From assembly GCA_963674675.2 (NCBI GenBank), contig CAXXNM010000003.1, forward strand, positions 2,044,133 to 2,108,132: a stretch of 64,000 nt of DNA, written 5' to 3'. This document shows positions 12,028-51,305 of this stretch, in pieces. Both the position numbers and the translations under genes were made by a program. Position 1 is the stretch's first letter, and every line of letters starts with the position of its first letter. The DNA comes from Desulfobacteraceae bacterium (GTDB lineage Bacteria > Desulfobacterota > Desulfobacteria > Desulfobacterales > Desulfobacteraceae). The notes under the pieces are model-generated. The model saw nothing but the letters and a program-made list of their open reading frames with translations, was not told the DNA's origin and did no database searches.

Positions 12028-14280
12028 ATGGGCCTTCAACTATGTTATATAATTGTCGGCATGCTGATCTTATTTGCTATTTTTGATCTGATTGTCGGCG
12101 TGACCAATGATGCAGTAAACTTTTTAAACTCATCCATCGGGTCCAAAGCTGCCCCTTTTGTTATGATAATGACCATTGCCGGTCTGGGCATCCTGGCAGG
12201 TGTTACCTTTTCCGGCGGCATGATGGAAGTGGCAAGAAAAGGGATTTTTCATCCCGAATTTTTTACCATGCCTGAACTTTTAACTATTTTTCTGGCTGTT
12301 ATGATTACGGATGTTCTGCTGCTTGACCTTTTTAATACTCATGGCCTGCCTACTTCAACAACTGTATCCATTGTGTTTGAGCTGCTGGGGGGTGCAGTGG
12401 CGTTGTCTCTGATCAAAATCATGGCATCAACAGACAGCACCATGGCATTATGGGACTATATCAACACGGCCAAGGCCATGGCAATTGTGGGTGGAATCCT
12501 TCTCTCCATTGTAATTGCCTTTTTTTCCGGTGCCGTGATGCAGTTTATATCGCGGATTATTTTCACATTCAGTTATGAGAACCGGCTGAAAAAATATGGG
12601 GCACTCTGGGGGGGAGTGGCCATGACCGCCATTACCTTTTTTATTCTTGTCAAAGGATCCAAAGGCGCAACCTTCATGGATGCCGCCACTGTAACCTGGA
12701 TAAAGACCCATTCATCGACAATCATGGCCGGAATATTCCTGATTTCCGCCGGGATATTCCAGATACTGATCATATTTTTTCGAGTTAATATATTAAAACC
12801 GATTGTCCTTATCGGGACCTTTGCTCTTGCCATGGCTTTTGCCGCCAACGATCTGGTCAATTTCATCGGTGTCCCCCTCGCAGGCCTTACCGCCTTTCAA
12901 AACGCCATTGTATCCAGCGATCCCTTAAATATAACCATGGCTGCCCTTAGCAAAAAAGTCCAATCCCAGACCTATATCATGCTGCTGGCAGGACTTATCA
13001 TGGTGGTGACCCTGTGGCTATCTAAAAAAGCAAGAACGGTTACGGAAACTGAAATCCGCCTGGGGCAGCAGGATGAAGGAACAGAAAAATTCGAATCCAT
13101 CTGGCTGTCCAGAAAAATTGTCAACCTGTTTGCTTTCCTGTTCGACACGATTAAAAACCTTACCCCGGCGGGCATGAGAAAAACCATCTCCCGGCGCCTG
13201 GCTCCGGCGGCCGAACAAAAAGGGCTCTCCCAGATAGAAAAACCGTCCTTTGACCTGCTTCGTGCATCTGTCAACCTGATGGTGGCAAGTGGAGTTGTCT
13301 CTTTTGCCACGTCTTTGAAACTGCCGCTGTCCACCACCTATGTAACCTTTATGGTGGCCATGGGTACGAGTTTTTCAGATCAGGCTTGGGGCAGAGAAAG
13401 CGCGGTATACCGGGTAACCGGGGTATTAACCGTAATTGGCGGCTGGTTTATGACAGCGTTCATAGCCTTTGTAGCCTCCTTTGTTTTTGCCAATATTTTA
13501 TTCTATTTTAAAATCCCGGGATTTTTTATTGTAATTGCCGTTGCGGGATACATGATCCTGAAGAATCACCAGAAGCATAAGGGCAAAGAAAAAGACAAGG
13601 ATGAAATGATCATTTATAACCTGCACAAGGTTGAAAATTTCCAGGAATCCGTATCCCAGACATTTGATCATTTGGCCTTTCTTCTCAAGGGAATCAGAGA
13701 ATCCTTTGAGATTTCCTTTGATGCGCTTTTCCAGGAGGACCTGAATAAGCTAAGACAGGAACGCATGCGGGTCAAACACTTCCAGGACAGCACTAATATC
13801 ATCATTGCCAATATTTTTAAAGTATTGCGGCTGCTTTCAAAGGAAGATGAGCAGATTTCCTATAATTACTACCAGATCATCAGGCGGCTGCAAAAACTCA
13901 CTTACGGCCACAGGGATACGATAATCCGTTCCAGCATGCATGTCAGCAATCATCATAAGGGTCTTTTAGATGTCCAGATTAAGGAACTAAAAGAGATTCA
14001 AAAGGTTTTCCTGAATATCTTTTCACTTGTTGAGACAGCTTTTCGGGATAAGGAAATAGCTGACTGTCAGAAGGCTGTGGAACAGTTTTATTATTTAAGG
14101 GAACTGGTGGATGATTTTAATGAAAACCAGATTCAACGAATCAGGGATGATTCATCTAAAACACGTTTGAGTATCCTTTTTTATGCCATCAGCGGTAACT
14201 GTGTTATGATGTCAAAACAAAATGTAAAGCTTTTAGATATTTTTAATGAATCCTTTAAACTGAACCAGAAATGTTCATGA
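12028..14280 (+). CDS. PiT/PHO4-family inorganic phosphate transporter with a long C-terminal soluble extension
   Basis: Two PiT signature regions, 'GVTNDAVNFLNSSIGSKAA' and 'FAANDLVNFIGVPLAG'. Multiple TM segments. About 220-aa helical C-terminal tail. RBS 'aaaggagag'. Confidence 0.75.
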   Translation: MGLQLCYIIVGMLILFAIFDLIVGVTNDAVNFLNSSIGSKAAPFVMIMTIAGLGILAGVTFSGGMMEVARKGIFHPEFFTMPELLTIFLAVMITDVLLLDLFNTHGLPTSTTVSIVFELLGGAVALSLIKIMASTDSTMALWDYINTAKAMAIVGGILLSIVIAFFSGAVMQFISRIIFTFSYENRLKKYGALWGGVAMTAITFFILVKGSKGATFMDAATVTWIKTHSSTIMAGIFLISAGIFQILIIFFRVNILKPIVLIGTFALAMAFAANDLVNFIGVPLAGLTAFQNAIVSSDPLNITMAALSKKVQSQTYIMLLAGLIMVVTLWLSKKARTVTETEIRLGQQDEGTEKFESIWLSRKIVNLFAFLFDTIKNLTPAGMRKTISRRLAPAAEQKGLSQIEKPSFDLLRASVNLMVASGVVSFATSLKLPLSTTYVTFMVAMGTSFSDQAWGRESAVYRVTGVLTVIGGWFMTAFIAFVASFVFANILFYFKIPGFFIVIAVAGYMILKNHQKHKGKEKDKDEMIIYNLHKVENFQESVSQTFDHLAFLLKGIRESFEISFDALFQEDLNKLRQERMRVKHFQDSTNIIIANIFKVLRLLSKEDEQISYNYYQIIRRLQKLTYGHRDTIIRSSMHVSNHHKGLLDVQIKELKEIQKVFLNIFSLVETAFRDKEIADCQKAVEQFYYLRELVDDFNENQIQRIRDDSSKTRLSILFYAISGNCVMMSKQNVKLLDIFNESFKLNQKCS

Positions 14281-16215: not shown

Positions 16216-19200
16216 TTATTCAATGGTGGTAAAATTGACTTCATCGAACATAAAGACATCTGAAATACTACCATATGCCTCCAATGTCCATTCCCCCTTA
16301 AATTCGGGAAAATCTTTAAAATCCAATGGAAGAATATCGTTAAGACCCCATGAAGGCAAAAGGACATCAAAGGATTTATGTTGAAAATTAAGGTCAATCG
16401 TTTCATCCTTGCAAAAACAGCGTGAAATAACGGATATATTTAAAAATTCATAACCCATATCAGGTTCCATATCAGGTTCAAGTATAATAGATAATTTTTC
16501 ATCTTCCTGATCAAAAACAGCAATATCAAAAGGGTTATCTATACTTAGTGTTTCTGAAAAACTGGAAGGAATAATCTTTCCGTATGATGTTAAAAAATAA
16601 AGAAAATTGCTTCCTGAATCAATTATATCAAGAACGATTTCACCGGATTCCAGACTTATTTCATTTAACTGTTGAAACGATTCATCATCCAGAGAATACT
16701 TGAACAATAGTTCAATTCCAGGTAGCACCTGGGAAGAGTCCTGAATGGCAGGGTAAAATGCAATAAGAATGGTTTTATCAGAATATGCCACAGAGGAGTG
16801 CCACCAGGAAACTGAACCAGGCAGGTCAAAGCTTTTAATGGGAGCTATCTCACTTTGTTGATACCCTCCCATCTTGAATTTGAAAAGATCTCCTTTCCCA
16901 GTGACCATATAACCATATGACACTCCATTGTATTCAATTATAAACGGCGAATGGTCCAAGGGCTGATGAAAATTAAGTTGAACAATTTTTGGAAGATATT
17001 CAGGTTCTGAAGACGCCGGGCTCCAGCCTAATACATAGAGATAACCATCCCAGGACGGCATAAGTATCTGGCCGCATCCGCCAAGTACCGGTTGTGCCAT
17101 TAATGCTCCACCTGCCTGAAATTTATACAAAAATTTATCATCTTTCCAAACAGTCAATTTACCGTCTCTACCTGGAACATAAAGGCGTCTTTCAAATCCT
17201 TGTTCCACCATAATAGGTTCTACAAATACACCCCTTGCTGGTTCTGGGTCATCCAGCTCTTTGTCTTTTATTTTTTCGATTTCTTCATAAATATCATCAA
17301 TATGAACTATATTCTTATCATCTTCCCTAACCAAATAAACAGACTGGTCAGAATCAACAAACATGTGGAGATTATCTTTGCTAAGATTACTAAAATCCCT
17401 AACCAGTTCAAGGCTCTCTGCATTAAATATCGCAAAATTTTGACCCATGGTTAAATACAGCAAGTTTCCCTTAATGGTAAGAAATGGACGTTCCGTATAA
17501 AAAATCAGTTCATCCATATACTCTGAGATATCATCTGCAGAAAAGGGCAGCATTACCGATGCAGTGGTACTAAGGGTGGCTTGATTTACCCTGTAAAGGG
17601 TTTGCCCGGACACACAATACAGAATTCCGTTGCTGAAGATACACTTTGATGCGTAGCCTGCAAAAGGATCCAAATCAAACACACTTGGAATCACATTAAC
17701 TTGAATATTATAAGTTCGAGTAACAGGGGTGAGATAGGTGCCTGGGAAACTGCAATCAACGGCCAGATCAAAATTTCCGGCATCAACAAACGGTGAGCTA
17801 CACTGGATTGCAAAGCGTTTTTCTTCATTAGCGTCAAGGGTAGAATGCAATACCTTTGATGGCATGGTTTCATTAGACATTGAATCCTTAAACGCCGAAT
17901 AATCCACCGCGCTACCACTTAACTCAAAAGAATAGGGCAGGCCATCTTTACCGGTATTTTTCAAAACGATTTCTATATCAGAAAAACGATTTGAATCATT
18001 CAACTCATCTGATTCATATAATAAAAAAGATGCCGTAAAGTTATCTGGATTGAATATCAGTGTATAATCATACCATTCACCGCTGACATATCCAGAATTC
18101 TTTCCTGCCATGGGCCATGGATCAATAGGATTAAGGCTCCAAGAAGTCCCATAGCGCCAAATTTGGCCCATACCATTTTCCGACAGAGCACTGACATATA
18201 AGTTGCCTGACAGATCGCATGATATATCCGAAGAGATTGAATATACATCCAGGGCTGAAGTTACAACAGAATCAGAAGGTGGCATAAAGGCATTCATACA
18301 AAAATCATCGGTAAAAAGGCAGATACGATCACCCATTAAAACTGGAGAATGTGATACAGGGGTACCTGGTGTTTTAAATTCATCAAAGGTATCATGGTTA
18401 TAAATAACAAAACCGCTTTCCGTTAAAATCCAAAGTCTATTCTCTAAATCAACCAGTGGAGTAACATCAGTTAGAGGAACATAAGGAATCATATTCCTCA
18501 CCCGATCGCCTAATTGCTCCTCATCAAGGGACAAAGCATCCAAATAATAATTTCGGGAGGTACGTGTAATGAAATAGACACTGTCATGGGACAACGAAGG
18601 CCTGGTAACGGGTTCAGCACCAAGGTAAAGGATTTTCTTCGTCTTTCCTGCTTTGTCTACAAAATAAATCTTTCCTGATTCATCGCTGACAATTATGTAT
18701 TTTGATGATAGCATAGCTGAAATCATACCGGTTGTTCTTAATGCCAAGTTCCATGTTTCAATGCCATTTTCAAAGCCAAAGAGTCGTCCTTCATTAGTTA
18801 CAACAAAAACAGAACTTCCGGATCCCGTTAATGGAGCATGAATACATCTTTCATCTTCTTGAAGTGAAAGTTGAACCTCCCACTTTAACATTCCCTGGGA
18901 ATCAAAACAGTGAAGGCTGCCAAAGTAAGTCAAAACGCATAAAAAATCTTGATTATTAAGTACAGGCTGTGCCTTAACCCTTTGTCCAAGGGTGTCTTTC
19001 CAAAGAACATTATATTGATCCCGCACCACAATATTCCCGCAGGTATCGACAACATAATTAATTCCGTTACCATCGGTGAGTGTTGATATATTTTCCAGAG
19101 GACACTCGGTTTCAATCCAAAGAACTGCGCGGGAGATTTCCGCCCATGCGCTAGTGGATATTAGGAGAAAAAATAAAACTACCGCAAAAAATTTATTCAA

Positions 19201-19233
19201 TGGATTCAATGGATTGAATTTCAAAACATGCAT
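16216..19233 (-). CDS. large secreted protein with N-terminal PQQ-like beta-propeller repeats (function unknown)
   Basis: Signal peptide 'MHVLKFNPLNPLNKFFAVVLFFLLISTSAWA'. Repeats such as 'GNIVVRDQYNVLWKDTLG' and 'GSLHCFDSQGMLKWEV'. 'gggaggga' RBS. Start overlaps the upstream gene by 41 nt. Confidence 0.6.
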   Translation of the reverse strand: MHVLKFNPLNPLNKFFAVVLFFLLISTSAWAEISRAVLWIETECPLENISTLTDGNGINYVVDTCGNIVVRDQYNVLWKDTLGQRVKAQPVLNNQDFLCVLTYFGSLHCFDSQGMLKWEVQLSLQEDERCIHAPLTGSGSSVFVVTNEGRLFGFENGIETWNLALRTTGMISAMLSSKYIIVSDESGKIYFVDKAGKTKKILYLGAEPVTRPSLSHDSVYFITRTSRNYYLDALSLDEEQLGDRVRNMIPYVPLTDVTPLVDLENRLWILTESGFVIYNHDTFDEFKTPGTPVSHSPVLMGDRICLFTDDFCMNAFMPPSDSVVTSALDVYSISSDISCDLSGNLYVSALSENGMGQIWRYGTSWSLNPIDPWPMAGKNSGYVSGEWYDYTLIFNPDNFTASFLLYESDELNDSNRFSDIEIVLKNTGKDGLPYSFELSGSAVDYSAFKDSMSNETMPSKVLHSTLDANEEKRFAIQCSSPFVDAGNFDLAVDCSFPGTYLTPVTRTYNIQVNVIPSVFDLDPFAGYASKCIFSNGILYCVSGQTLYRVNQATLSTTASVMLPFSADDISEYMDELIFYTERPFLTIKGNLLYLTMGQNFAIFNAESLELVRDFSNLSKDNLHMFVDSDQSVYLVREDDKNIVHIDDIYEEIEKIKDKELDDPEPARGVFVEPIMVEQGFERRLYVPGRDGKLTVWKDDKFLYKFQAGGALMAQPVLGGCGQILMPSWDGYLYVLGWSPASSEPEYLPKIVQLNFHQPLDHSPFIIEYNGVSYGYMVTGKGDLFKFKMGGYQQSEIAPIKSFDLPGSVSWWHSSVAYSDKTILIAFYPAIQDSSQVLPGIELLFKYSLDDESFQQLNEISLESGEIVLDIIDSGSNFLYFLTSYGKIIPSSFSETLSIDNPFDIAVFDQEDEKLSIILEPDMEPDMGYEFLNISVISRCFCKDETIDLNFQHKSFDVLLPSWGLNDILPLDFKDFPEFKGEWTLEAYGSISDVFMFDEVNFTTIE

Positions 19234-22200
19234 TGCTCTCCCTCCCTTCAATATCAACCGCTCTGAATGTGTTACCAGATGATAAAATATCTGTCTGCCC
19301 GCTGTCTGCATCAATCTCCAAGGAATAGATCAAATCACCGTTGGGCAGGTTTCCAATATACTCCGCCACCAGTTCAAAAGCAGAGGAAGTATCCTGCCAG
19401 ATAACATAATCTAACAGATTATCTCCTTTGCGTACAACTGCAATCAATTCCACCTTCCCACTTCCGTTTTCCAAAAATGCTGGAACACAGCCACAGCCTG
19501 TCAACTGGGGTGCTGATGCAGTTGTATTGCCAAGGGAAAACTTAGGTGCAATCCCGCTATATTGAAAATCTTCTGAAAAATGAAGTTCCCCAAAATCCGA
19601 AGTCCCTAATTTAGGAAATTCAGGTGAGGTTAAACCACTTGAATCCGTGGCTAAAATAGTATAATTGTCCAAAGCTAACAAGGGTTCTTCATTGCCAAGT
19701 AGGTCTTGATTTGCCTTGAAAGTAATCGTCCACAACTCATCACCATTAAGAAGAATACCGTTTTTCTTTAGTGGCCGCCTTGAGTTTCCGTCTTTGAGCT
19801 CCACCTCTGACAGTCCGGCTCTTCCCGGGCGGACAAGAGCCCATAAGGTGATAATATCACCGGATTCAGCAAGAGATGGTGTAAAGCCAGCAACCAGAAC
19901 CTGGGGTTCTTCAAATTTCCTGTCATTATATTCAGGTTTCCAATCATTCCCGTATAAAGTTACATTCAAGCTCTTTTCTTCAATACCTGAAGATGTGAAG
20001 AGTAAGGTTTTATTATAATCAACATAATCGGAATGCTGGACACTCAAGTCATATTCTCCGGGAAACAGGGTAAACATATATTTTCCTCTTGAATATACTG
20101 TATCAACTACCTTATTATTAATAAGTATGGAAGCACCTGAAACAGAATTAGCTTCCTCATCAACCAGAGTAAGAATGATGTTAACCTTATCGTCACTATA
20201 ATAAGGATAAATTTCAATGTAGGCTGGAATGAAAAGTTCAGCATCAAAGTAAATATCTGAGCTTAGAGCAACAACATCCTGCCAACCACCCGGTTGCATG
20301 TAGTTTACCCCATCGACTGAAGAGGATATTATCTGAACGACAGTATTGTTAATCAAAAATTTATTTTCTTCTGATTGAGTAGCTGCTCCAGCAGGTTCTT
20401 TTTCAATCTCACTCCTGAGATAGGTAATTACAGTTTCCTCATCAATTGTGCGGCTGATTGCGCCATCATGCTGTCTAATATCCACCGCAATGGTATTTGA
20501 AAATCGATTTAATGAGGTGGGATCAATCAGCACTTCCTGCCAATCTGAAGGGCCTTCCCCAAGTTTCGCTCTGCTACCCAAAGTGATATCTGAGGCATCC
20601 TTATCCTCATCAATATTAAGTCGATCTATTTCCTTTCCATTAAGGTAAGCAAATAACCCATCACCTGAATCTGTTCTGAACCTGAACTTGATAAAGGGAA
20701 AGTCATCGGTATCACCATAATCAAAAACAAAATCCTTATAAAGTCTTAAAATATTTCCCACCATATTGGGAAATGCCGATGGCAACGGAATATTTTCTTT
20801 ATCATAAAACTTAAACTGGTACCGGGGAATATCAAGTTCCGTCAAAGGAGTTTCAACTGAAAACCATCCCGTAACGGAAAATATGTCTGAATACCATTCA
20901 GAATTATTTAGTTCTTCTACCTGTGAACTTGACAGCAAAGGAATTGAAGGCCAATACTGCCATGTATCACCCGACAAAATCATATTTTGTTCTTCATGGA
21001 GCAATATTCCTAATGATACTGATTCCCCTTCTTCTAAGGATAATGCATTGTAAGTAGAGGTTGGATACCCGTCAGCATGAATGACAATATCATAGGTTCC
21101 AGGAATGAGAGACATGGTTGCCCCATACTCCATGAAAATATAATTCTGGGTTATGTCGTTTTGCCTGGCTTCAACATACATTTTTGACAAAGAATAATCA
21201 TCTATTGAATCAGTAATAAACTCAATGGTGGCAGGCCCATAAGCTAATCTGCTCAATTCGAGGTCAAAAGCAATATCAGAGCTACCTGGTTCAGCTTGGT
21301 GAACCTCCACGGCAATCAGATTCTCGCCTGATTGGAGATACTGATTGGAAATAAAAAAAGTCTTCCATTCAGCATCCACAGGGCGGGTGGCGAGCGTAAA
21401 ATGATTGACATCTCCTTGAGGCATATTCCATCTTAGAACTTCATGACCGTTAAAATATAAAATAAACCCGTCATCAACCCAAATATTAACCGCCACAGCT
21501 TCATCAGAGTTGAATTCTGGAGCCGAGATCGTCTTACTGAAATAATATGTTATAAATTTACCATTAAGTACTGGTTCGTCTTTAGTTAGAGAAAATTTAT
21601 CTTCAATATATTCATACATTCTCTCTAACTCATCAGCATAAGAAGATTCTAAAGATAATGCTTCGTGTAACGGTGTCGAATAGAACTCACCATTGTCTGA
21701 AAGCAGCCCAAAAGGAGAAAATCCAGAATATCCATAGGGGGCAAAAAGAGTCCATGCTTTATTGTTTGAATCAAAGGATGGTTGTTTCCATGTACCGTCA
21801 TTAATACCGGCCGATGAGGTATAGATTTCGGAAAAGTTATATTTTCCAATGCTGTTGTATTGCCAGAAAGAACCCCGCCATAGAATAACATCATCGTCTG
21901 GAGTTAAATTTTGTCTTATTTTTAAAAGAGTTCCTGCATCAACCCCAACTACATTCCTTAGATAGGGCTCAATCCCCCCTGCCCCATCAACCGCATTAAA
22001 TAAGGGTTCTAACCATTCAGGATACACAACATTTGGATAATTCCAAGATGCCATATAATCAGAGACAATAGACTCATTTGAAACGCCAAGCAACTTTAAA
22101 GTCAGAGCCGCGGCCACCCCTGTACGATCCTTTCCCTGGGAGCAATGAAACAGCAGAGGTAAATTATAGGGATCTGCAATAAGCAAAAAATATTGCCTGT

Positions 22201-22747
22201 ATTTATCTGAAAATTGGATAACCATATCTGGATACCAGGTTCCAACTATCTGGGCCACATCTTCTAATTCGCCTGCAGTTATATCTCCGGACATATAACT
22301 TATATATTGTTCAACAATTTTTGCACAATCAGGGCATACCTTTTCAGAATCAATTGCCAAAGGATAATGTATGACATTATTGGTAAGCTCAGTTTCTTCT
22401 GGAGCCTCGATAGTTTCCGCCGTGGACCTGAAATCAACAACGGTTTTAAGCCCCATCTCCCCTACCAGTGTATTGAGTTCCTCGCCCGTTAAATCGTTTA
22501 AACCAGCGGAACGAAAGAGAAGTTTTGGCATGACTGTTCGATTTTTCGCACCTGTAAAGCCCCCGACACATCGAAGATTCCTTTCCTGGATCACCCAGCA
22601 GGGCTGCTCATCGCAATCCTGCCAGCCTTCAGTCCCATTACCCAGGATAGCTTCTCTCTGAATTCCGGCAAGACATAAATTCTGTGTTATCATCTCGCTT
22701 AGAAAAAAAGACATAACGATGAATATCATCATTTTACTAATTCTCAT
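19193..22747 (-). CDS. secreted multidomain protein: N-terminal CX5R tyrosine-phosphatase domain plus duplicated beta-sandwich and carboxypeptidase-regulatory-like domains
   Basis: Signal peptide 'MRISKMMIFIVMSFFLS'. 'LLFRSAGL', 'VVDFRS' and P-loop 'HCSQGKDRTG' (nt 22118-22147). Two 'W-x-Y ... DDG ... NG-E ... AVE-HQ' type modules. 'gaggggg' RBS before the ATG at 22747. Confidence 0.7.
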   Translation of the reverse strand: MRISKMMIFIVMSFFLSEMITQNLCLAGIQREAILGNGTEGWQDCDEQPCWVIQERNLRCVGGFTGAKNRTVMPKLLFRSAGLNDLTGEELNTLVGEMGLKTVVDFRSTAETIEAPEETELTNNVIHYPLAIDSEKVCPDCAKIVEQYISYMSGDITAGELEDVAQIVGTWYPDMVIQFSDKYRQYFLLIADPYNLPLLFHCSQGKDRTGVAAALTLKLLGVSNESIVSDYMASWNYPNVVYPEWLEPLFNAVDGAGGIEPYLRNVVGVDAGTLLKIRQNLTPDDDVILWRGSFWQYNSIGKYNFSEIYTSSAGINDGTWKQPSFDSNNKAWTLFAPYGYSGFSPFGLLSDNGEFYSTPLHEALSLESSYADELERMYEYIEDKFSLTKDEPVLNGKFITYYFSKTISAPEFNSDEAVAVNIWVDDGFILYFNGHEVLRWNMPQGDVNHFTLATRPVDAEWKTFFISNQYLQSGENLIAVEVHQAEPGSSDIAFDLELSRLAYGPATIEFITDSIDDYSLSKMYVEARQNDITQNYIFMEYGATMSLIPGTYDIVIHADGYPTSTYNALSLEEGESVSLGILLHEEQNMILSGDTWQYWPSIPLLSSSQVEELNNSEWYSDIFSVTGWFSVETPLTELDIPRYQFKFYDKENIPLPSAFPNMVGNILRLYKDFVFDYGDTDDFPFIKFRFRTDSGDGLFAYLNGKEIDRLNIDEDKDASDITLGSRAKLGEGPSDWQEVLIDPTSLNRFSNTIAVDIRQHDGAISRTIDEETVITYLRSEIEKEPAGAATQSEENKFLINNTVVQIISSSVDGVNYMQPGGWQDVVALSSDIYFDAELFIPAYIEIYPYYSDDKVNIILTLVDEEANSVSGASILINNKVVDTVYSRGKYMFTLFPGEYDLSVQHSDYVDYNKTLLFTSSGIEEKSLNVTLYGNDWKPEYNDRKFEEPQVLVAGFTPSLAESGDIITLWALVRPGRAGLSEVELKDGNSRRPLKKNGILLNGDELWTITFKANQDLLGNEEPLLALDNYTILATDSSGLTSPEFPKLGTSDFGELHFSEDFQYSGIAPKFSLGNTTASAPQLTGCGCVPAFLENGSGKVELIAVVRKGDNLLDYVIWQDTSSAFELVAEYIGNLPNGDLIYSLEIDADSGQTDILSSGNTFRAVDIEGRESNACFEIQSIESIE

Positions 22748-24647
22748 TTTGCACCCCCTCGATGGAATTCCTATAATTGAAATCTCCAGCTTTATTGAAA
22801 AGTTCATTCATATAATCACCTAAAATTTCAGCTCTTTGTATTAAAAAATTCTCTATACGCTTCAATTCATTATCATGATCAACGAATTGAACAGCACACA
22901 TATCGCTCAGATTGACATAATCCAAGCTGTCACCAGGCCATCGATCAAAGTTACGATCCAGGGCGGTTTTAGTAAGCCTTGTACCATTTATGGCAATAAG
23001 TTCATTATCTGATGGAACCATAGTAGCTATCATTTTCTTAATCTCGAATTCGCTCATAGGATTACCGTTTTCCCGCAAATAGTTAATACGCCTTGTTAAT
23101 GAATCCTTGAATATTGTGTTGTGGAGCATCTCCCAGAACATCTGGGTGCGGGGAATCACCACTTCCATATCCTCTGCTAAATCCCAATTATCTGAAAGGC
23201 AGGAAGAAATAAAATCGATACCACCAAGTTCTTTAAACCTATCCAAAAGATAGGTTTCTGTGGTTCCATAGTTGTCAATGTTGTACATTGTCGCCAAGAG
23301 ATAAAGCCAGTAAGTATTCCGGTCATTGCCAAGAGCTCTATCATAATCCCATACGGTGAAATACATATCACCGTCGGACTGATTACGATACAGATAAAAA
23401 TTCCCGATATAACTGTCAAAACACAGAAACAATTCCTGTAAAATCATATAATCCACAGAATTGCTCAAGGAGAGATAATCAAATATTGAGCCTGAGCCTG
23501 TATAGTCAAAACCCAGCACTGCATCCTCAAAAGAGAGAAAATAATCAATCAAATTTCTCTCTTGTAACAAGTCCAACTTAGAAGTATCTGATGGATATTT
23601 TAATTCGTAAAATAACGTGGAGAGAAATTCGGAAAGCCCGTCAGCCACATCATTCGATTCTGCCGCAAAAAATGGCATAAATCGATCTTCATAATTTAAC
23701 TCTGGATCACCACTGTCAATGGAAACAATAAATTTTTCACCAGTCTTGTCTTTTGAAAAACCATCGTTAAAAAAACGATCAATATATTCACGCTTGATGC
23801 TTTGACTTAACAGATATAGCCCCATATATTCATGATTGACAAAAAGTTCCACATAACGTGATTGAACACTGAAGTTTAAAGGAGAAAAGGAACGAAATAA
23901 CTCAAAGGCCAGCTTATTGGCAATAAAAGATCTGTCAAACCAAGAGCCATTCAAGACCCAGTCCTCACCCTGACCCATATCCAGTATATGAAAAGCATCT
24001 GTCCCTTCTTCTTCCCCTTCCTCATCGTTCCATATCCTCATTTCCATAGAATATTGTTTTTTGGGAAATGAGCGGGAGGTGTTACCGCGCACTTCAATAC
24101 CGCATCTTTCATTATGAAGCAGTTTAAGAGAGGCATCGTATATCGAAATATCAGCAGGCAGTTTTTCATAGCAGCCCTCACCTGTAAATCCATTGGAGCA
24201 CACAGAAACAAGGTCATCCGTTACAACGGAAATAACCGGCAAGGATGGTTCTATTTTTTGAACAATACCCTCTCCATGGGCAACAATGCTACCTTGAGCA
24301 TCAGTTACTGTGATTTCAAGAGAACAGTGAGCTTCATCACAATTGCAATTAGAATTTATTGGCTCGAAAAAAAGAGTTTCAAAATCGATTGATACTGTTT
24401 CAGGTTCAGAGGCACCCGTTTTTTTCAAGGTTGCCTTGATTGAATAACCATCCATTTTTAAAGGCAATTCAGAATATGACCATGAAAAAACCGGACCCAT
24501 GCCGGGAAGCCCCAGGCAAAAAGCTGAAATGGGAATCTGGGCAGGTATATTTTCCTGGGCAGAGGCTTCCATAGGCAAAAAGCTTAACAAAAGGCTGCAT
24601 AATAGTGCCCCCCATAATATCGATTTCTTCTTTTCGAATAAAAACAT
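22737..24647 (-). CDS. secreted CotH-family (atypical protein kinase fold) protein
   Basis: Signal peptide '..LLLSFLPMEASA'. CotH-like blocks 'FPKKQYSMEMR', 'RYVELFVNHEYMGLYLLSQSIKREYI' and 'NFYLYRNQSDGDMYFTVWDYDRALG'. 'ggagga' RBS 6 nt before the ATG at 24647. Confidence 0.7.
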   Translation of the reverse strand: MFLFEKKKSILWGALLCSLLLSFLPMEASAQENIPAQIPISAFCLGLPGMGPVFSWSYSELPLKMDGYSIKATLKKTGASEPETVSIDFETLFFEPINSNCNCDEAHCSLEITVTDAQGSIVAHGEGIVQKIEPSLPVISVVTDDLVSVCSNGFTGEGCYEKLPADISIYDASLKLLHNERCGIEVRGNTSRSFPKKQYSMEMRIWNDEEGEEEGTDAFHILDMGQGEDWVLNGSWFDRSFIANKLAFELFRSFSPLNFSVQSRYVELFVNHEYMGLYLLSQSIKREYIDRFFNDGFSKDKTGEKFIVSIDSGDPELNYEDRFMPFFAAESNDVADGLSEFLSTLFYELKYPSDTSKLDLLQERNLIDYFLSFEDAVLGFDYTGSGSIFDYLSLSNSVDYMILQELFLCFDSYIGNFYLYRNQSDGDMYFTVWDYDRALGNDRNTYWLYLLATMYNIDNYGTTETYLLDRFKELGGIDFISSCLSDNWDLAEDMEVVIPRTQMFWEMLHNTIFKDSLTRRINYLRENGNPMSEFEIKKMIATMVPSDNELIAINGTRLTKTALDRNFDRWPGDSLDYVNLSDMCAVQFVDHDNELKRIENFLIQRAEILGDYMNELFNKAGDFNYRNSIEGVQNEN

Positions 24648-24764
24648 AACAATTCCTCCAGAGAGACGCTCATAATTCAAATTTATCTAAAAAAAACTTG
24701 ATGTGGCAAATATGCCCCAAAAAGGATTCAAAAGGCTGTTGAAAGGATTTACAGGTATTTATGA

Positions 24765-25778
24765 TCAGGGAATTTTAAATGTAAACCATGCGGGAAGGTC
24801 CTTTCCCTGATCAGAAACCAGGGTAACCATACCTTTTTGTCCCGGCGTCAGGCACAACCCTTCCGGATTATACCCTTTTAATTTTTTAATAATTTTAGGA
24901 TCAAGTATACCGGTTTTGGGTTCAGAAACATGCCATGCGAAGCCACCGTCTTTTCTGCCAGAAAGTATAACAAGGCCACCTGTGCCTGTAAAAACCATAT
25001 CAGAAATGCCGCTAAAGACTCCTTTCTGACCATAGGACATCAAAGGGACCTTAGCCCATAATGAAAATAATCCCACAATGGCATCAACATCATCGGGTGT
25101 TTCAAAAATCTGATAATAATGTTCAAGGCACCATATTAATGCATATTTATCGTTATATAGAGGGGCATTCAATCCAAGATAGAGCTTTCCATCATGATAG
25201 GCCATTCCTTCAATATCAAGTTTTGTTAAATCCGGAACCGCTAAATCCTCTAAAAAATGTTCATGATTTTTGCTAATATTTTCAAGCATTTTAAATAAGG
25301 ATACATAGGAAACCACCATAAGATTTTTACCGACAATCTTTGTTTTTAAAAAAAGCTCTCTTACAGCAGTTCTCTTTCCTTTAGATGTTACTGACTGAGA
25401 ACCAAGTAGATAGATGAAACCATCATCATCCCTGCATATGGATTCAAGATCAGCGATTTGTCTTATTCCGTTTAGTTTGATCATATCAGGCTGAATATTT
25501 CCACGATAATCCATTAAAAAAAGATAGGGAATATTTTTAACTTTCCCTCTGCCCGTATCGTCACTTACAATAAGGTAGCCACCAAACTCCTCAACCCATA
25601 ATATGGCAGAGGGCTCAAAGTGAAAATTCTTTTTAAGAGTCTCTGGTAGAAAGATTTCACTCACTTTCCCTTGAGGCTGAGATACATTGTTGACCTGATC
25701 AATAAATATAAGCAATAAAAAAGCAACAAGCGCAACAATAGTCAGAATAGCAATCAATTGACGGGATGAGATATTCAT
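24765..25778 (-). CDS. membrane-anchored hypothetical protein, probable beta-propeller (phytase-like/DUF3616-like)
   Basis: N-terminal TM anchor 'LIAILTIVALVAFLLLIF'. 'IEGMAYHDGKLYLGLNAPL' and 'NPEGLCL'. 'aggag' RBS. Confidence 0.45.
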   Translation of the reverse strand: MNISSRQLIAILTIVALVAFLLLIFIDQVNNVSQPQGKVSEIFLPETLKKNFHFEPSAILWVEEFGGYLIVSDDTGRGKVKNIPYLFLMDYRGNIQPDMIKLNGIRQIADLESICRDDDGFIYLLGSQSVTSKGKRTAVRELFLKTKIVGKNLMVVSYVSLFKMLENISKNHEHFLEDLAVPDLTKLDIEGMAYHDGKLYLGLNAPLYNDKYALIWCLEHYYQIFETPDDVDAIVGLFSLWAKVPLMSYGQKGVFSGISDMVFTGTGGLVILSGRKDGGFAWHVSEPKTGILDPKIIKKLKGYNPEGLCLTPGQKGMVTLVSDQGKDLPAWFTFKIP

Positions 25779-25913
25779 CTTAGCACTCCTGACGGCATTT
25801 ATTTTTTCTGTAATTCTATTATTGGTTTTGATTGTATATTATAATTCATTAGTTTTATCCAAATGTATTAAAATCGACCTTGATTTTTGAAAATAGTCAC
25901 AAAAATAGAGCAT

Positions 25914-26588
25914 CTATTCGGAAATAGCATCATTGGCTGGGAAAAGCAGTTTTGATTGCCCCCCCCATGTTGTTTGTATTGTTGATAGCAATTTTTGCTC
26001 CCTGCCAGGGAGCAGATTAACCGCTACAATTAATTCACAATTATCATTATCAAATATTTTACTTTTTAAAGTTAACTGTTTTGACAATAAAGCAATCTCA
26101 TCGAGGAAAGCATCACAATTGAATTTCTTAAAGGCATTGCCTCTAAATGAAACAATAAGGAGATAATCATTTATGTTTCTTGAATAAAATCGGCTGGCAA
26201 AAATTTTCCGAACAACGAGAAATATTCCTATCATGGAAGAAACAAATAAAGAAATCAATGCATAACCGGCACCTGAGGCAATACCAGCTGACAATGACCA
26301 AAAAATAAAAAAAAGATCCAAAGGCTCTTTAATAGGCGTACGATATCTAACTATGGAAAGCGCACCTATCATGCCAAGAGAAAGGGCAAGATCATTGCTA
26401 ATAGTTATAATAATTAAAGAGACAATAACGGGCAATAAAAGTATAGATGTACAAAAGCCATTGGAAAAAAATACTCCCTCATAGGTTTTTTTATACACAT
26501 GATAAACAATAGATCCATTAAGAAAAGCAATAAAAAATATAAACATCGCATTTTTAAAAATATGCGCCTCGTTAGACAAATAGCTCAT
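25914..26588 (-). CDS. DUF4956-like polytopic membrane protein
   Basis: Several TM helices and the block 'GALSIVRYRTPIKEPLDLFFIFWSLSAGIASGAG'. Start is ambiguous (ATG 26588 or GTG 26600). Confidence 0.6.
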   Translation of the reverse strand: MSYLSNEAHIFKNAMFIFFIAFLNGSIVYHVYKKTYEGVFFSNGFCTSILLLPVIVSLIIITISNDLALSLGMIGALSIVRYRTPIKEPLDLFFIFWSLSAGIASGAGYALISLFVSSMIGIFLVVRKIFASRFYSRNINDYLLIVSFRGNAFKKFNCDAFLDEIALLSKQLTLKSKIFDNDNCELIVAVNLLPGREQKLLSTIQTTWGGQSKLLFPANDAISE

Positions 26589-26788
26589 TATGAAATACAC
26601 ACTCCTTTCAAAAACTTATCATTATCTTTATAAAAGATCAGAAAATTTTGCAACCAGCAATTCCAGATCACCATAGAGCCTTTTTAATTTGATCTGTTTG
26701 CTTGATTTTCGTATTTTTTTATAACGATCCCAGTAAAGATAAGGCTCTCATACGTTTTTCATCGAGAACCGCTGGGCATTAATAACAA

Positions 26789-27598
26789 TCAAGTATGAAA
26801 ATTATTCTTGCTACAATAATGTTGTGACAATGCTTTTTTAAATACACTGCATTTATCCAAATTAATACCTGAACCAACCAAACCCATTACATACTTGCTT
26901 ACGGCACTTCTGACAGATATCAAACCATCAAAAAGGAATTTGTACTGATTAGGAAATGACTTGTTAAATTTAATTTCCAGTATACAGTATTGGCTTAAAA
27001 TTAAGCTTGATTGCCTCTGGACACCAGGATGCAAAAAGTGTTTAAAGTCATTTGAGGCAGCCAAATCATAATCCAAAGTAATTCTTAAATTATTAGGATA
27101 AGCGTAGAAAGCCTTACGAAAATAGTCAATAATCACCAATGGTTTGTAAAAGCCTGACCTAAATTTCAAGTAGGAAAGAATAGAATGTTTTGAAATTTTT
27201 TGATAAAAAGGGGAGGTATCTCCATTAATGAGTGCTCTGGCTTCTTGGATATCAAATTGAAATGCCTGTTTTTCAACCAGATCCCCATCTTTACGCTTTA
27301 TCTCAAATTTTATAGTATCTCCGGAAGTCCAGGGAGGATTATATATCCTTATTCTGAATTTTTCCCTTTTTTTAAACCCCCCCAATTTTTCCCAGGAAGA
27401 TGCGCAGTTAACACTGTCAAAATAAAGGCTGCTGATGCAATAACCACCTTTATCCAAACATGCATTATGATCAATATTTAAAAAAGTAGCCAGCCTTTTT
27501 CCTATGAATGCAGCTTCCCTAAGTGTCAAATAAAATTTAAGTTCATATCTTTTCAAATAGAATCTCCAAAAAATCACTTTTTTTAAAAAACAGTCCAC
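26789..27598 (-). CDS. VTC-domain (polyphosphate polymerase-like / triphosphate-tunnel) protein
   Basis: 'KRYELKFYL', 'YCISSLYFDS', 'REKFRIRIYN', 'IKFEIKRKDGDLVEKQ' and 'YCILEIKF' (alternating charged beta-strands). Start is uncertain: GTG 27598, or TTG 27556 preceded by 'ggag'. Confidence 0.6.
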   Translation of the reverse strand: MDCFLKKVIFWRFYLKRYELKFYLTLREAAFIGKRLATFLNIDHNACLDKGGYCISSLYFDSVNCASSWEKLGGFKKREKFRIRIYNPPWTSGDTIKFEIKRKDGDLVEKQAFQFDIQEARALINGDTSPFYQKISKHSILSYLKFRSGFYKPLVIIDYFRKAFYAYPNNLRITLDYDLAASNDFKHFLHPGVQRQSSLILSQYCILEIKFNKSFPNQYKFLFDGLISVRSAVSKYVMGLVGSGINLDKCSVFKKALSQHYCSKNNFHT

Positions 27599-28160
27599 AT
27601 AGACAGAAACAAGGTGTAAAATTATGGATTTGGGAAAGCTTGAGATTAAACGAAATATATTTTCCGTAAAATAAATGAGGTTCCATGCTATACTGGTAAC
27701 CTAAGAAATCAAACAAAATGTACGAATTATGTACACAAGGTTTTAATCTGTCAAGAATTTTAGGCAAATTTGTTCATATTGTTTATATTACAAACAAAGT
27801 ATGATACGATATTTCTTTTTGATAAAAAAATTTAATATAATTAAATACTATTATTTTATACATCTTTTACTATTCAATATTTATATTTTCAAGCTTTATC
27901 TAAATTTTAAAAAATTTACTGAGAAACCACCATTTTGGATGCTGGATATACTAAACCTCAGACCCGTCTTTGTTCTTTCGTTTTATTCTACGTACATACA
28001 TGCCCATGTAACAAGCATGTATTTTCAAATATATCAAGTATAAAATTTAAATTCGTGTGCCCACTAATTTTGGGAGCCAAAACCACATTTTTGCTGAATT
28101 TATTGGATATTTTAACAAAAATCTGGCAAAAGAAACCTATAGCTGTCGAACACAGGCTAA

Positions 28161-28790
28161 TATATCTTCCGCAAAAAAAACATCGGTTTTGCCGCCGGAG
28201 TCAATACAGAAATCACCAAAGCGCTTGAGTTTGAGTTTGATAATAAGGCAATGATCCTGCTCAACAATGATACCGAAATAACTCATAACGCTATTGAGAT
28301 GAGCGTAGATACCATTATAAAAAACGATGCAGTAGTAGGAACCGTTGAGTACCATCTTTCAAAAAAAGGAAAAAGAACTTACAGGGCTCTATTTTCAGGC
28401 GGAAAACTTGCCTGGAGGGAGGTTGCAATAAAGATTACCCCAACACCAAGTAATAAGCAAGAGCCCTTTGTTAGTAATTTTATCAGGGGCTCGTTCATGG
28501 CTCTACACCGAAATATTATCACCAAAGTGGGAAACATGGATGAATTCTTTATTTCGTATCTGGAAGATGTTGACTTCAGTATTAGAAGCTCCAAAGCAGG
28601 TTATCAGCTTTTAATTGACCCAAGGGTTAGAATCTGGCACAGGGTATCTTATTCCGCCTCAACATATCAGCATAACTACCTTATGGCATTCAATTATCTG
28701 AAGTTGCTGAAAAAAGCATGCTTCAGGATGCCCTTTTTACAGGGGTTTTCTGATGGGGGAAATATCTGCATTTTGTTCAATTATCAATAA
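28161..28790 (+). pseudogene. family 2 glycosyltransferase remnant (5'-truncated, probably also frameshifted)
   Basis: The reading frame upstream of the ORF-track ATG continues as 'YIFRKKNIGFAAGVNTEITKALEFEFDNKAMILLNNDTEI' and is cut by stops at 28140 and 28158. The N-terminal nucleotide-binding part is absent. The 'YLEDVDFSIR' motif is present. A GT2-like C-terminus continues in the +1 frame after an A6 run near 28714. Confidence 0.65.
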
Positions 28791-29128
28791 AAAACGTAAC
28801 GGTAAATTCCATGGCTTTATTCACGGGTTGATGGCAATACTTATGAAATTTACTTAAAATAAAAATTTAAAGAAATTAAATCTTTGAATCAGAATAATCA
28901 GGCGTGCCTATTCCGAGTTCTTCCATATCCAAAACGAATATTGACCTTATATTAATATGATGGTAGGTTGCCATTCTATATTATGAGTGTTGACGAAGAA
29001 TATCCCTGAAGCAGTTCCAATACTTGACATATTTTAAAATTAACGATTTAGATTACAAGTCCAAGAAAGCTTTGCTGGTGAATATTCATTTTCAAAGATT
29101 ATTGAGGGGCTGGAGGAAATTTTGCCTC

Positions 29129-30085
29129 ATGTATGATAACCACCTTAGTTATCCCAAGGAAATTATTCTTGAAGTAACCAATATATGCAACCTTCAATGT
29201 AGATTCTGCCATTTCCATGGAGAAGATGCGCAGATAAGAAGAAAACTTGGTTGCATGGCACCGGAGGTGTGGGAAAAACTCCTTAGGGAGATAAGGCAGT
29301 GGGACAGGCCATGTACCATTCTTACCCATGGAGCAGGAGAACCGCTTTTATATCCACACCTTGAAGCTCTATTGACGGCCCTGAAAGATATTCCCAAGGT
29401 ACATACTGGTTTCATGAGCAATGGAATGCTCTTGACCCCTGAAATTTCAAAGATGCTTGTGGCTCTTCAGATCAACAGCCTTGCTTTGAGCATTGATGGG
29501 GTTTTGCCTGAAACCCACGACTATTTTCGTAAAAATGCCAACCTCAAACTAATTGAGGAAAATGTAAACCATCTGATAGCCGAAAAGAAACGGACAGGCT
29601 CGCCCCTTCCTTCCCTCACATTTAATATGGTGGGATATCCGGATATTTTTGAGCAGGAAGACGCTTATGTAAAAAAATGGCTGCCCCATGCCGATTCTGT
29701 AATGATTTCAAAATTCAGGCCCGTGGGATCAAGAAAGCTGTGGGATGATGCTGATGCTCCTCCTTTTATGCCCTGCCCTCTTCTATACTCCCAGGCTGTT
29801 ATCTCCATAGAAGGGGATGTCGGCCTTTGCTGTGAGGATATCAATCTGGATGTACCTGTGGGAAACCTGTTAAAAGACGACTTATTTAGTCTGTATAACA
29901 CCAGTTCTGTGCTGAATCGCTACCGGAATGCCCATGGGAAAAAAGATATTGCTCGCTTGAAACTCTGTTCAGACTGTCATGTCTGGGGATCCCATATCAT
30001 CCTTAAAAAATATAAGAAAACAATGGGAGAAATAAAAGCTCTCTGTCATGTCTCACCATCTGGGAAAGTGTATAAAAAAAATTAA
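29129..30085 (+). CDS. radical SAM protein with C-terminal SPASM/twitch-like cysteine cluster
   Basis: 'EVTNICNLQCRFCHF' (CX3CX2C). Later 'GDVGLCCED' and 'CSDCHVWG'. 'ggagga' RBS before the ATG at 29129. Confidence 0.8.
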   Translation: MYDNHLSYPKEIILEVTNICNLQCRFCHFHGEDAQIRRKLGCMAPEVWEKLLREIRQWDRPCTILTHGAGEPLLYPHLEALLTALKDIPKVHTGFMSNGMLLTPEISKMLVALQINSLALSIDGVLPETHDYFRKNANLKLIEENVNHLIAEKKRTGSPLPSLTFNMVGYPDIFEQEDAYVKKWLPHADSVMISKFRPVGSRKLWDDADAPPFMPCPLLYSQAVISIEGDVGLCCEDINLDVPVGNLLKDDLFSLYNTSSVLNRYRNAHGKKDIARLKLCSDCHVWGSHIILKKYKKTMGEIKALCHVSPSGKVYKKN

Positions 30086-30221: not shown

Positions 30222-31319
30222 ATGAGTGTAACCGCCGTCATTGTAAATTACTACACCTCAGCCTATCTGCCGGATATGTTAAGGGATCTGGCCGACTTCG
30301 ATGATATGGATAAGGTGTTTGTGGTGGATAACAGCGGAGAAGTGGATTTTTTTTCACTTCAAAACCTACTGCCTGGAAACTCGCTTCATGGAGTTGAGAT
30401 TCTCAAGCCCGGAAAAAATATAGGGTTCGGAGCTGCCGTCAACCTTGCCGCGGCCAAAGCCTCTTCTGAATATCTCCTGGTTATAAATCCCGATGTAAAA
30501 CTCTTTCCAGGATGCCTGGAGCATCTTCTTGATGCTGCCGGGAGATATGGATCGGTTTTGACCGGGCCGAGATTCTTCTGGGATGAGGCAAAAAGATACA
30601 GGCTTCCGCCAAGCCAGGGGGCATCTTCCTGGCTCGATTATGCCTTTGAAGCAGCAACCGTCAACCGCCTTGAGTTTGAACACATCTCATTTTACTGGCA
30701 GATGCGCCATGAAAGGTTCTGGGCAAAAACCATTCCGTTTACGGAAATTTTTCTTTCAGGAGCCTGTGTTCTGATTAAACGCGAATGGGCAGTGAGAAAA
30801 AATTCAACTGTTTTTGATGAAAGATTTTTTCTCTATTTTGAGGATAATGATATATCCTTGAGGGCTCATTTTGATGGTATACCACCTCTATGCGTACCGG
30901 CAGCAGAGGCCCTTCACCATTATGACCAGTCTCCTTCACCGGAAAGGGACAAAGTTGATCTTATGGGCATATCCCATGGAAAATTTTCCAAAAAGCATTA
31001 TGGAAACCTGAAATTTCTTTTGAAAAAAAAGGGACTATACATGCCGGATATAGATGATATAGGTCAGATTACCGATCCTTTTTCATTAAATCCAAAGACC
31101 TTTAAACCTGTGGGCGCCCTTTATTTTGAGATAGGAGTAAATCCCACTTTTATACCCTTTGCCCAGACAGAGCTTTCAATGATGGATCATGGAAAAAACA
31201 CTGAAGAATTTACACTGAATGAAGCCATCTGGAAGAGACTTGCAAAAGGAGTTTATTACGTAAGAATAAGGGACACGATAAAAGGGGTGCTGAAAATATG
31301 GAGATGGCAAAAAGTGTAG
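30222..31319 (+). CDS. family 2 glycosyltransferase
   Basis: 'VTAVIVNYYTSAYL', 'VVDNSG', 'NIGFGAAVNLAAAKASSEYLLVINPDV' and 'YFEDNDISLR'. Confidence 0.85.
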   Translation: MSVTAVIVNYYTSAYLPDMLRDLADFDDMDKVFVVDNSGEVDFFSLQNLLPGNSLHGVEILKPGKNIGFGAAVNLAAAKASSEYLLVINPDVKLFPGCLEHLLDAAGRYGSVLTGPRFFWDEAKRYRLPPSQGASSWLDYAFEAATVNRLEFEHISFYWQMRHERFWAKTIPFTEIFLSGACVLIKREWAVRKNSTVFDERFFLYFEDNDISLRAHFDGIPPLCVPAAEALHHYDQSPSPERDKVDLMGISHGKFSKKHYGNLKFLLKKKGLYMPDIDDIGQITDPFSLNPKTFKPVGALYFEIGVNPTFIPFAQTELSMMDHGKNTEEFTLNEAIWKRLAKGVYYVRIRDTIKGVLKIWRWQKV

Positions 31320-34512: not shown

Positions 34513-34723
34513 ATAGGGTTTTCGGAAGAGTTTCATGTAAAAAATTTCATCATTTCATTAAAACCACTCCACACATCAATATCATCTTGTGAAGCCAGCA
34601 TGCTCAAAAATAATCAGGAGATGATATTGACTGAGCCAAGTAATCTTATAGACTTTAATCCTTTGCTGTGATAAATCTTTATTATTTGATAACCTGGAAT
34701 ATTTACATAAGGAGTTGTCAATA

Positions 34724-35587: not shown

Positions 35588-35592
35588 GACCC

Positions 35593-51274: not shown

Positions 51275-51305
51275 CTTATTTCAATCATTTTCAAAGGAGA
51301 GTATC

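Follow-up and report, generated by a model that had tools for sequence, protein, structure and literature searches.

A rare extended variant of the bacterial VTC-DUF4956-CotH cassette, and a tentative role in phosphorylation outside the cytoplasm

We analyzed a block of six co-directional minus-strand genes in a 64,000-nucleotide stretch of a Desulfobacteraceae genome (GCA_963674675.2, contig CAXXNM010000003.1, positions 2,044,133 to 2,108,132; hereafter the window). In order of transcription, the genes encode a VTC-domain protein (g1), a DUF4956 membrane protein (g2), a membrane-anchored β-propeller (g3), a secreted CotH-family kinase (g4), a giant secreted Cys-based phosphatase (g5) and a giant secreted protein with PQQ/BamB-type propeller repeats (g6). 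The VTC-DUF4956-CotH core is an already-known and widespread bacterial cassette. The anchored propeller, the phosphatase giant and the PQQ giant are new here, and the locus is a rare extended variant of the cassette. We tentatively favor, at somewhat less than an even chance, a reading in which all six genes constitute a self-supplied writer/eraser system for extracytoplasmic phosphorylation, a scheme in which we infer each chemical step.

A first-pass annotation of the letters had proposed the six genes as one block, and all six open reading frames (ORFs) were confirmed, spanning 16216-27598 of the window, with every motif quoted in that annotation found in their translations. The Pfam families it had expected were recovered: VTC in g1 (PF09359, E 5.4e-29, 101.8 bits against a cut-off of 23, profile positions 1-231 of 235), CotH in g4 (PF08757, E 1.6e-32, 113.7 bits against 23.8, profile positions 1-321 of 322) and Y_phosphatase3 in g5 (PF13350, E 1.8e-41, 143.1 bits against 22.2, residues 76-302 of the long ORF), together with a modest match to DUF4956 in g2 (PF16316, 34.7-35.1 bits against 30.6, E ~1.5e-8, covering profile positions 20-109 of 169 only). 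The annotation had also named loss of catalytic residues as an outcome that would count against it; the VTC tunnel residues, D411 and D434 of the CotH protein and the CX5R loop of the phosphatase are all intact. Hydropathy agrees with its assignment of a soluble g1, a polytopic g2 and signals or anchors on g3 to g6. Thus, g1 is predicted to be cytoplasmic, g2 polytopic, g3 anchored with its propeller outside, and g4 to g6 exported. No matches to g1-g5 were found in NCBIfam. We rejected an anti-phage defense role, since PADLOC returned 0 families at E <= 0.001 for the six proteins.

The core has been noted several times in the literature. Contiguous genes for CotH, a polyphosphate (polyP) polymerase of the VTC type and DUF4956 lie beside the pel operons of streptococci, clostridia and bifidobacteria (PMC7112168), and the same set is held by NELoc-2 of C. 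perfringens, where the membrane protein was mislabelled as tubulin/FtsZ (PMC2879425). In S. intermedius, SIR_1594/1593/1592 are an example of the set, and mutants of the DUF4956 and CotH homologues produce less Pel and aggregate less (PMC12345266). Regulation by phosphorylation has been suggested for the Pel-linked genes (PMC7112168, PMC12345266). Beyond these pel and NELoc-2 papers, which give no mechanism, we found no functional or biochemical study of the cassette in the literature. The co-occurrence of CotH, VTC and DUF4956 mentioned in the first-pass annotation is thereby documented, also by two of the loci that we retrieved (L008 and L011). No paper was found that reports a phosphatase giant or propeller giants with the cassette, in line with the annotation's impression that the combination was new.

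Comparison with the pel and NELoc-2 cassettes indicates what has been added. Those cassettes comprise the same three contiguous families, with a CotH protein predicted to be secreted, and are linked to polysaccharide genes. In contrast, the locus in the window has no pel genes in its scanned flanks and its host is probably Gram-negative; the anchored propeller sits between DUF4956 and CotH, and the two giants are probably translationally coupled to CotH, with no DUF4832 or FN3 partner.

We searched ~5.8 billion protein clusters for homologues, among which the accessory proteins g3, g5 and g6 have one to four relatives each. For g3 there are four homologues; for g5, a single full-length one (P0001, 58% identity). 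For g4, a single close relative at 55% identity is followed by one at 33%. One contig, L001, carries CotH, the phosphatase giant and the PQQ giant (55/58/57% identity) as overlapping genes in the order of the window, with the g6 homologue in the same position, and is the only other contig that has the two giants with CotH. Among L001-L010, phmmer found a g5 homologue in L001 only; PF13350 is absent from the Pfam-annotated genes of L011-L013 and L015, and the phosphatase giant gave no match in two metagenome scans, one with the single sequence and one with a 2-sequence alignment. Three further contigs (L007, L009 and L010) carry VTC, DUF4956 and a g3 homologue in the order of the window, so that every g3 homologue with a recoverable contig, together with the partial one on L007, lies directly after VTC-DUF4956; L006 carries VTC and DUF4956. 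The gene order is therefore kept in the few relatives found (L001, L007, L009, L010), as the annotation's reading had required. None of the recovered related contigs, which are 2-9 kb long and end at a break, carries all six genes. A scan of one genome per GTDB species with a 3-sequence VTC alignment found no close relative of g1, and only four ~30%-identical loci, in Erysipelotrichaceae/Bacilli.

At greater distance the pairing of the first two genes is constant. VTC is immediately followed by DUF4956 in 10/10 VTC-bearing loci fetched, from at least three lineages. In the window the cassette runs g1, g2, (g3), g4, and L008 and L011 have the same order without g3: GGDEF/HD, VTC, DUF4956, CotH, a small ORF and MBOAT in L008, and an HD-GYP regulator, GH1, VTC, DUF4956, CotH and a GT2+PilZ synthase in L011, a Clostridium metagenome-assembled genome (MAG). 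In L009, YfhO lies upstream. The CotH partners in L008 (6495-8102) and L011 (10001-11548) have an N-terminal anchor and a C-terminal hydrophobic tail, and every partner protein examined has a signal or anchor at its N-terminus. In an Erysipelotrichaceae MAG (L003, SVBB01000008.1, 8164-15165), a Cthe_2159 carbohydrate-binding protein follows VTC and DUF4956 in place of CotH, with a Big_2 protein upstream and a two-component system downstream. Thus, the invariant pair appears to be VTC and DUF4956, and the exported partner is interchangeable. CotH also occurs without VTC, in the Bacteroidota-like contigs L012 and L013.

One scaffold joins two of the families in a single protein. P0155 (L015, ENA ERZ23498930, 2438-5145) is one ORF in which a CotH domain is joined to a VTC domain through one transmembrane (TM) helix with basic residues after it, an arrangement that would place CotH outside and VTC inside the same membrane. 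The signal-anchored start of this CotH domain lies upstream of the ORF across an N-gap, and a DUF4956-like N-terminus downstream. From its architecture, this fusion is the best argument here for CotH and VTC acting together.

The g1 protein consists of the VTC domain only, with no signal peptide or TM segment by hydropathy. The first-pass annotation had started it at GTG 27598; TTG 27556 is the most likely start, because the sequence GGAGA precedes it by 6 nt and the two nearest homologues of g1 have MKRYELKF at their N-terminus, and the block as revised covers 16216-27556. An exhaustive search with g1 returned 3366 representative clusters of the VTC-domain family at E <= 0.001. Across 50 members, 22 positions are invariant, and all are kept in g1; they include R3, E5, K7, R64, K66, R68, R70, E85, K87, K96, Y145, R147, R158, D162, E194, K196 and K221. 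With the profile of the 50 members, the yeast Vtc4 catalytic domain is hit at E 2.3e-14 (3G3Q), and K7 of g1 aligns with Vtc4 K200 (8I6V numbering). Yeast Vtc4 makes polyP and moves it through the membrane in one coupled process; synthesis requires K200 and the paired arginines, and the inactive paralogues Vtc2/3 have lost the K200 equivalent. Hence g1 is predicted to be a cytoplasmic polyP polymerase. Compared with the yeast VTC complex (Vtc4/Vtc3/Vtc1), the fit to the Vtc4 tunnel domain, the invariant tunnel residues and the presence of a membrane partner are shared. However, g1 is a free-standing soluble domain with neither an SPX domain nor a fused Vtc-type TM domain, and its partner DUF4956 is a different family. 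No biochemical study of a bacterial VTC-domain protein was found in the searchable literature.

Elsewhere in the family, P0033, P0039, P0040 and ~20 other VTC-domain proteins have N-terminal extensions of 140-360 residues. These have no Pfam match (nine scanned) and no TM segment (20 checked); the sole extension that was read, that of P0033, is a Lys/Ala/Pro-rich low-complexity region.

Hydropathy places ~4 TM helices of g2 within residues 10-132 (hydrophobic segments at 10-32, 38-77 and 105-132), followed by a ~90-residue soluble tail. The loop ALSIVRYRTPIKEPLD is common to six homologues, with R81, R83, K87 and D91 invariant. In a single-sequence AlphaFold2 (AF2) model, residues 140-215 form a β-α-β-β-α-β (ACT-like) C-terminal domain, predicted to be cytoplasmic (predicted local distance difference test, pLDDT, 81-86), which weakly resembles ACT, NikR-C and PII domains (Foldseek E 0.005-0.03). 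The S. intermedius DUF4956 homologue has the same arrangement of ~4 TM helices and a C-terminal ACT-like domain, and an MgtC/SapB-type membrane domain has been claimed for it (PMC12345266).

The CotH protein g4 is very divergent, with B. cereus CotH (5JD9) matching at E 4e-4. Its D411 and D434 (FDSY...WDYD) are 23 residues apart, as in 5JD9, and are equivalent to D228 and D251, the catalytic pair of B. subtilis CotH. Among the aligned CotH partners, the first of these aspartates is kept in 7/8 and the second in 8/8. Relative to the Bacillus spore-coat kinase, g4 belongs to the same Pfam family and keeps both catalytic aspartates, but the similarity is very low and g4 has a signal peptide, an extra ~190-residue N-terminal region and long insertions. 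Furthermore, Bacillus CotH acts where ATP is available, whereas g4 is predicted to be exported. The Fam20-family secretory-pathway kinases, kinase-fold enzymes that act outside the cytoplasm on proteins and glycans, offer a functional analogy.

In g5, the phosphatase domain occupies residues ~56-290 and is followed by ~890 further residues. The P-loop HCSQGKDRT is intact (C202-SQGKD-R208-T), and VVDFRS, the DFRS motif, aligns with VADLRS of M. tuberculosis PtpB. The best relatives in the PDB are 8DHI (E 2.5e-17), for which no functional account was found in the literature, and PtpB (1YWF, E 2.9e-6); both share the P-loop HCxxGKDRTG and the upstream D-x-R-S with g5. Unlike these PF13350 enzymes, g5 is an exported protein of 1184 residues with jelly-roll and Ig-like modules that are common to CotH giants. 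There is weak similarity to Siw14 and the plant PFA-DSP enzymes, which hydrolyze phosphoanhydrides. A jelly-roll-type module lies at residues ~395-500, with a weaker second copy at ~590-760, and CarboxypepD_reg/Ig-like domains and a C-terminal region without family match are also present. The module at 395-500 recurs in at least 11 giant CotH+LTD proteins, three metallophosphatases and other large secreted proteins, which is consistent with a module for substrate targeting that phosphate-adding and phosphate-removing enzymes have in common. A functional analogy may be drawn to the glucan phosphatases laforin and SEX4, in which a Cys-phosphatase is joined to carbohydrate-binding-type modules.

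The first-pass annotation had called g3 membrane-anchored and propeller-like, and an AlphaFold model with the four homologues as alignment agrees, predicting a TM helix (residues 5-25) and a six-bladed propeller (pLDDT 82, predicted template-modelling score 0.81). Comparison to the PDB with Foldseek returned generic six-bladed propellers only (template-modelling score ~0.45). No Pfam match was above cut-off, DUF3616 falling below it. We discarded a YjiK-type propeller as a candidate, since comparison with E. coli YjiK (PF06977) gave no significant link. For g6, the annotation's PQQ-like propeller stands as a secreted protein, its signal peptide ending AWA/E by hydropathy, with BamB-like repeats (PQQ_2, PF13360, E 1.1e-10) in two propeller regions, residues ~75-230 and ~670-736 (PDB propeller matches at 74-230 and 671-736). 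The signature of a quinoprotein did not hold: the PQQ_2/BamB-like repeats cover only ~125-165 residues, there is no eight-bladed dehydrogenase domain, and a PQQ-dependent quinoprotein was rejected. Against the ACSF4 propeller g6 scored 48 bits, the cut-off being 133. Relaxed Pfam scans of g5 segments, g6 segments and the g4 N-terminus gave no further families, and BLAST gave no internal repeats or cross-similarity among g3-g6.

Orientation, overlaps and consensus sites make it probable that g1-g6 form one operon. The overlaps of 11 nt (g4/g5) and 41 nt (g5/g6) given in the first-pass annotation are correct, and the last three genes are probably translationally coupled, while the gaps g1-g2, g2-g3 and g3-g4 measure 117-200 nt. 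Ribosome-binding sites of the GGAG type precede the chosen starts of g2 to g6. The promoter upstream of g1 and the terminator beyond g6 (Table 1) are consensus matches only, and promoter-like sites of this kind are not enriched over shuffles.

Table 1 Features of the six-gene block and its surroundings, in window positions (aa, amino acids; nt, nucleotides).
Feature	Position	Strand	Basis
g1, soluble VTC-domain (triphosphate-tunnel) protein, 255 aa	26789..27556	-	Pfam VTC PF09359
g2, DUF4956 inner-membrane protein, 224 aa	25914..26588	-	Pfam DUF4956 PF16316
g3, membrane-anchored six-bladed β-propeller, 337 aa	24765..25778	-	AF2 model; no named family
g4, secreted CotH-family kinase, 636 aa, Sec signal ending ASA/QE	22737..24647	-	Pfam CotH PF08757
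g5, secreted Cys-based phosphatase giant, 1184 aa	19193..22747	-	Pfam Y_phosphatase3 PF13350
g6, secreted protein with PQQ/BamB-type propeller repeats, 1005 aa	16216..19233	-	Pfam PQQ_2 PF13360
Sigma-70-like promoter, best match upstream of g1: TTGACA-17-CATAAT	27726..27754	-	11/12 consensus positions
Terminator-like hairpin and T-run, ~50 nt past g6 stop codon	16148..16165	-	Consensus match only
Remnant of a family-2 glycosyltransferase (GT2), 5'-truncated, divergent from cluster	28170..28790 (approx.)	+	Open frame with NIGFAAGVN...LLNNDTEI...EDVDFSIR
Radical-SAM/SPASM gene, after GT2 remnant	29024-30085		
Intact GT2, after radical-SAM/SPASM gene	30222-31319		

In the writer/eraser system that we favor, g1 would polymerize phosphate from a nucleoside triphosphate at the cytoplasmic face, as yeast Vtc4 does. 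g2 would be the obligate membrane partner and would carry the nascent chain, or a different phosphoanhydride product, to the outward-facing side of the inner membrane, with its ACT-like domain gating this passage. The exported CotH protein would use or attach this phosphoryl polymer, phosphorylating an envelope or matrix target in a periplasm or at a cell surface that has no ATP pool; the target would most likely be an exopolysaccharide or a matrix protein. The phosphatase, held on its substrate by the jelly-roll and Ig-like modules, would remove or trim the modification, and the g3 propeller and the PQQ-type giant may serve as scaffolds or substrate binders.

The part of this scheme already put forward in the first-pass annotation, delivery of polyP or a phosphoryl donor by VTC and DUF4956 across the membrane to a secreted kinase/phosphatase pair, is plausible. 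It gains support because VTC and DUF4956 are paired at every VTC-bearing locus fetched, their partners are extracytoplasmic, a CotH-TM-VTC fusion exists and the tunnel residues are invariant. A glycan or matrix target appears as likely as a protein substrate, because the core elsewhere adjoins pel, GT2+PilZ, MBOAT, YfhO and cyclic di-GMP (c-di-GMP) genes and because Cthe_2159 can replace CotH. In the window itself, the genes divergent from the block include the GT2 remnant and the intact GT2. We are doubtful of the stricter form, in which polyP itself is threaded by the Vtc4-like enzyme and DUF4956, CotH takes polyP and not ATP as the phosphoryl or polyphosphoryl donor for modifying an exopolysaccharide or envelope protein, and the Cys-phosphatase erases the mark. 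If true, VTC/DUF4956 would give bacteria a third way to polyP, independent of PPK, and it would account for exported kinases that work without ATP.

A number of points weigh against the writer/eraser scheme. We know of no bacterial VTC-domain protein for which polyP production has been shown, and tunnel enzymes have several other activities. Similarly, no channel has to our knowledge been demonstrated for DUF4956; no relationship between DUF4956 and the Vtc TM domain was detected, and the TM part of g2 is unreliable in the single-sequence AF2 model (pLDDT 41-55). For MgtC no significant link was obtained: when 6 DUF4956 sequences were compared with E. coli YhiD by hhalign, the probability was 3.3% and E 0.013, the alignment covering only the G-x-I-G-A...G-I-x-x-G-x-G region. 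Characterized CotH kinases use ATP, and we know of no kinase of this fold that uses polyP. The phosphatase fold acts on lipids, proteins, inositol pyrophosphates and glycans as well. The P0155 fusion is a single metagenomic scaffold in which the residue equivalent to catalytic D228 is Glu, and the accessory genes g3, g5 and g6 are known from very few contigs. Finally, the case for one operon consists solely of orientation, overlaps, a promoter-like site and a terminator-like hairpin, and the gaps between g1, g2, g3 and g4 could house internal promoters.

We consider it fairly unlikely that polyP is exported for its own sake, to serve as a matrix or cation-binding polymer, and that the secreted proteins bind, anchor, cap or trim this polymer or a polysaccharide decorated with it. 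CotH would then be a polyP transferase or binder and not a classical kinase, and the Cys-phosphatase a polyphosphatase. Replacement of CotH by Cthe_2159 in Erysipelotrichaceae is consistent with this, the core being VTC and DUF4956 with a variable partner, as is the weak similarity of g5 to the phosphoanhydride hydrolases Siw14 and PFA-DSP. However, the best PDB relatives of g5 are 8DHI and PtpB, not Siw14, and the retention of both CotH catalytic aspartates in 7/8 aligned partners argues for phosphotransfer chemistry. A 2026 preprint describes PPK-independent, exopolyphosphatase-resistant extracellular polyP in the B. cereus group without a known source, which such an exported product would fit, but according to its authors a VTC4 homologue is absent there (PMC13484657).

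Also unlikely, in our judgment, is a regulatory module for exopolysaccharide synthesis without polymer export. Here the tunnel enzyme would make or hydrolyze a small phosphate compound sensed by the ACT-like domain of DUF4956, which would signal to neighboring glycosyltransferases, and CotH and the phosphatase would switch the synthase or matrix proteins on and off with ATP from another source. The predicted ligand-binding fold of the g2 tail suits this role, the tunnel superfamily includes triphosphatases and cyclases, and the core adjoins c-di-GMP enzymes and PilZ-gated synthases. The lower Pel of the S. intermedius mutants, for which the authors suggested regulation by phosphorylation, points the same way (PMC12345266). 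Conversely, the exported kinases would lack a source of ATP, and the adjacent GT2 is truncated in the window, yet the six genes are intact. Moreover, none of the basic tunnel residues of Vtc4 is missing from the bacterial family; the K200 equivalent, which Vtc2/3 have lost, is among those retained. Least probable, and distinctly improbable, is that two or three unrelated units lie side by side, VTC and DUF4956 with or without the propeller, and a secreted CotH-phosphatase-PQQ operon for adhesion or nutrient scavenging. The gaps of 117-200 nt upstream of g2, g3 and g4 and the occurrence of CotH without VTC in L012 and L013 would agree with separate units, as would the short related contigs, among which L007, L009 and L010 carry counterparts of g1-g3, L001 carries those of g4-g6, and none carries six; yet these contigs are short and broken, and the CotH gene of L001 starts 148 nt from the contig end. 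Both the CotH-TM-VTC fusion and the recurrence of VTC-DUF4956-CotH contiguity in distant lineages argue against separate units.

The locus is a further instance of an already-flagged cassette and not a new kind of system. It bears on how bacteria may produce polyP outside the PPK pathway and export it from the cell, and on how kinase-fold enzymes work outside the cytoplasm without ATP. Beside the core, its probable operon provides a matching phosphatase and proteins of a substrate-binding type, and so a fuller parts list for reconstitution, while the CotH-TM-VTC fusion supplies a direct topological argument for trans-membrane coupling.

The composition of the block sets it apart from its surroundings, as the first-pass annotation had judged by eye. 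The G+C content (GC) is 0.333 in g1 and g2 and 0.374-0.400 in g3-g6, compared to a mean of 0.433 (standard deviation 0.037) for 24 flank genes; at third codon positions the block has 0.28-0.37 and the flanks 0.33-0.53, and the spacer 27557-28250 has 29% GC. The decayed GT2 gene that the annotation placed next to the block was found as a remnant without its first ~70 residues. Of the annotation's further suggestion, acquisition as an island, the lower GC was borne out; no tRNA, no flanking repeat longer than chance and no integrase or recombinase were found among the neighbors scanned. The case for an island is therefore weak, the lower GC being its sole basis.

Ten flanking ORFs were scanned and include UvrA, PHO4, an M17 peptidase, the GT2 remnant, a radical SAM protein, GT2, a PLP enzyme and a porin; no Pel families were among them, and the pelDEA(DA)FG contiguity was not found. 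The window also encodes an outer-membrane MetA-family porin, chemoreceptors and a DsbD-type protein, which suggests a Gram-negative host.

Several other features of the window were recorded. A PHO4-family phosphate transporter that is unusually long (750 residues; 12028-14280, plus strand) lies 2 kb from the cluster, with the M17 aminopeptidase gene between. The MetA-family porin (33454-34425) is just upstream of the gene for a phosphonate-type periplasmic binding protein, which is followed directly by a dCache sensor protein (34715-36816, plus strand). Matches to group II intron D1-D4 occur on the minus strand at 60219-60461 and 60983-61243 (126 and 80 bits), ~0.5 kb apart; the adjoining minus-strand ORF (61488-63128, 546 residues) has no Pfam match at 1e-5. 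At 51270-52913 (plus strand), an Lcl C-terminal domain and an FGE-sulfatase (formylglycine-generating-enzyme-like) domain are combined in one protein.

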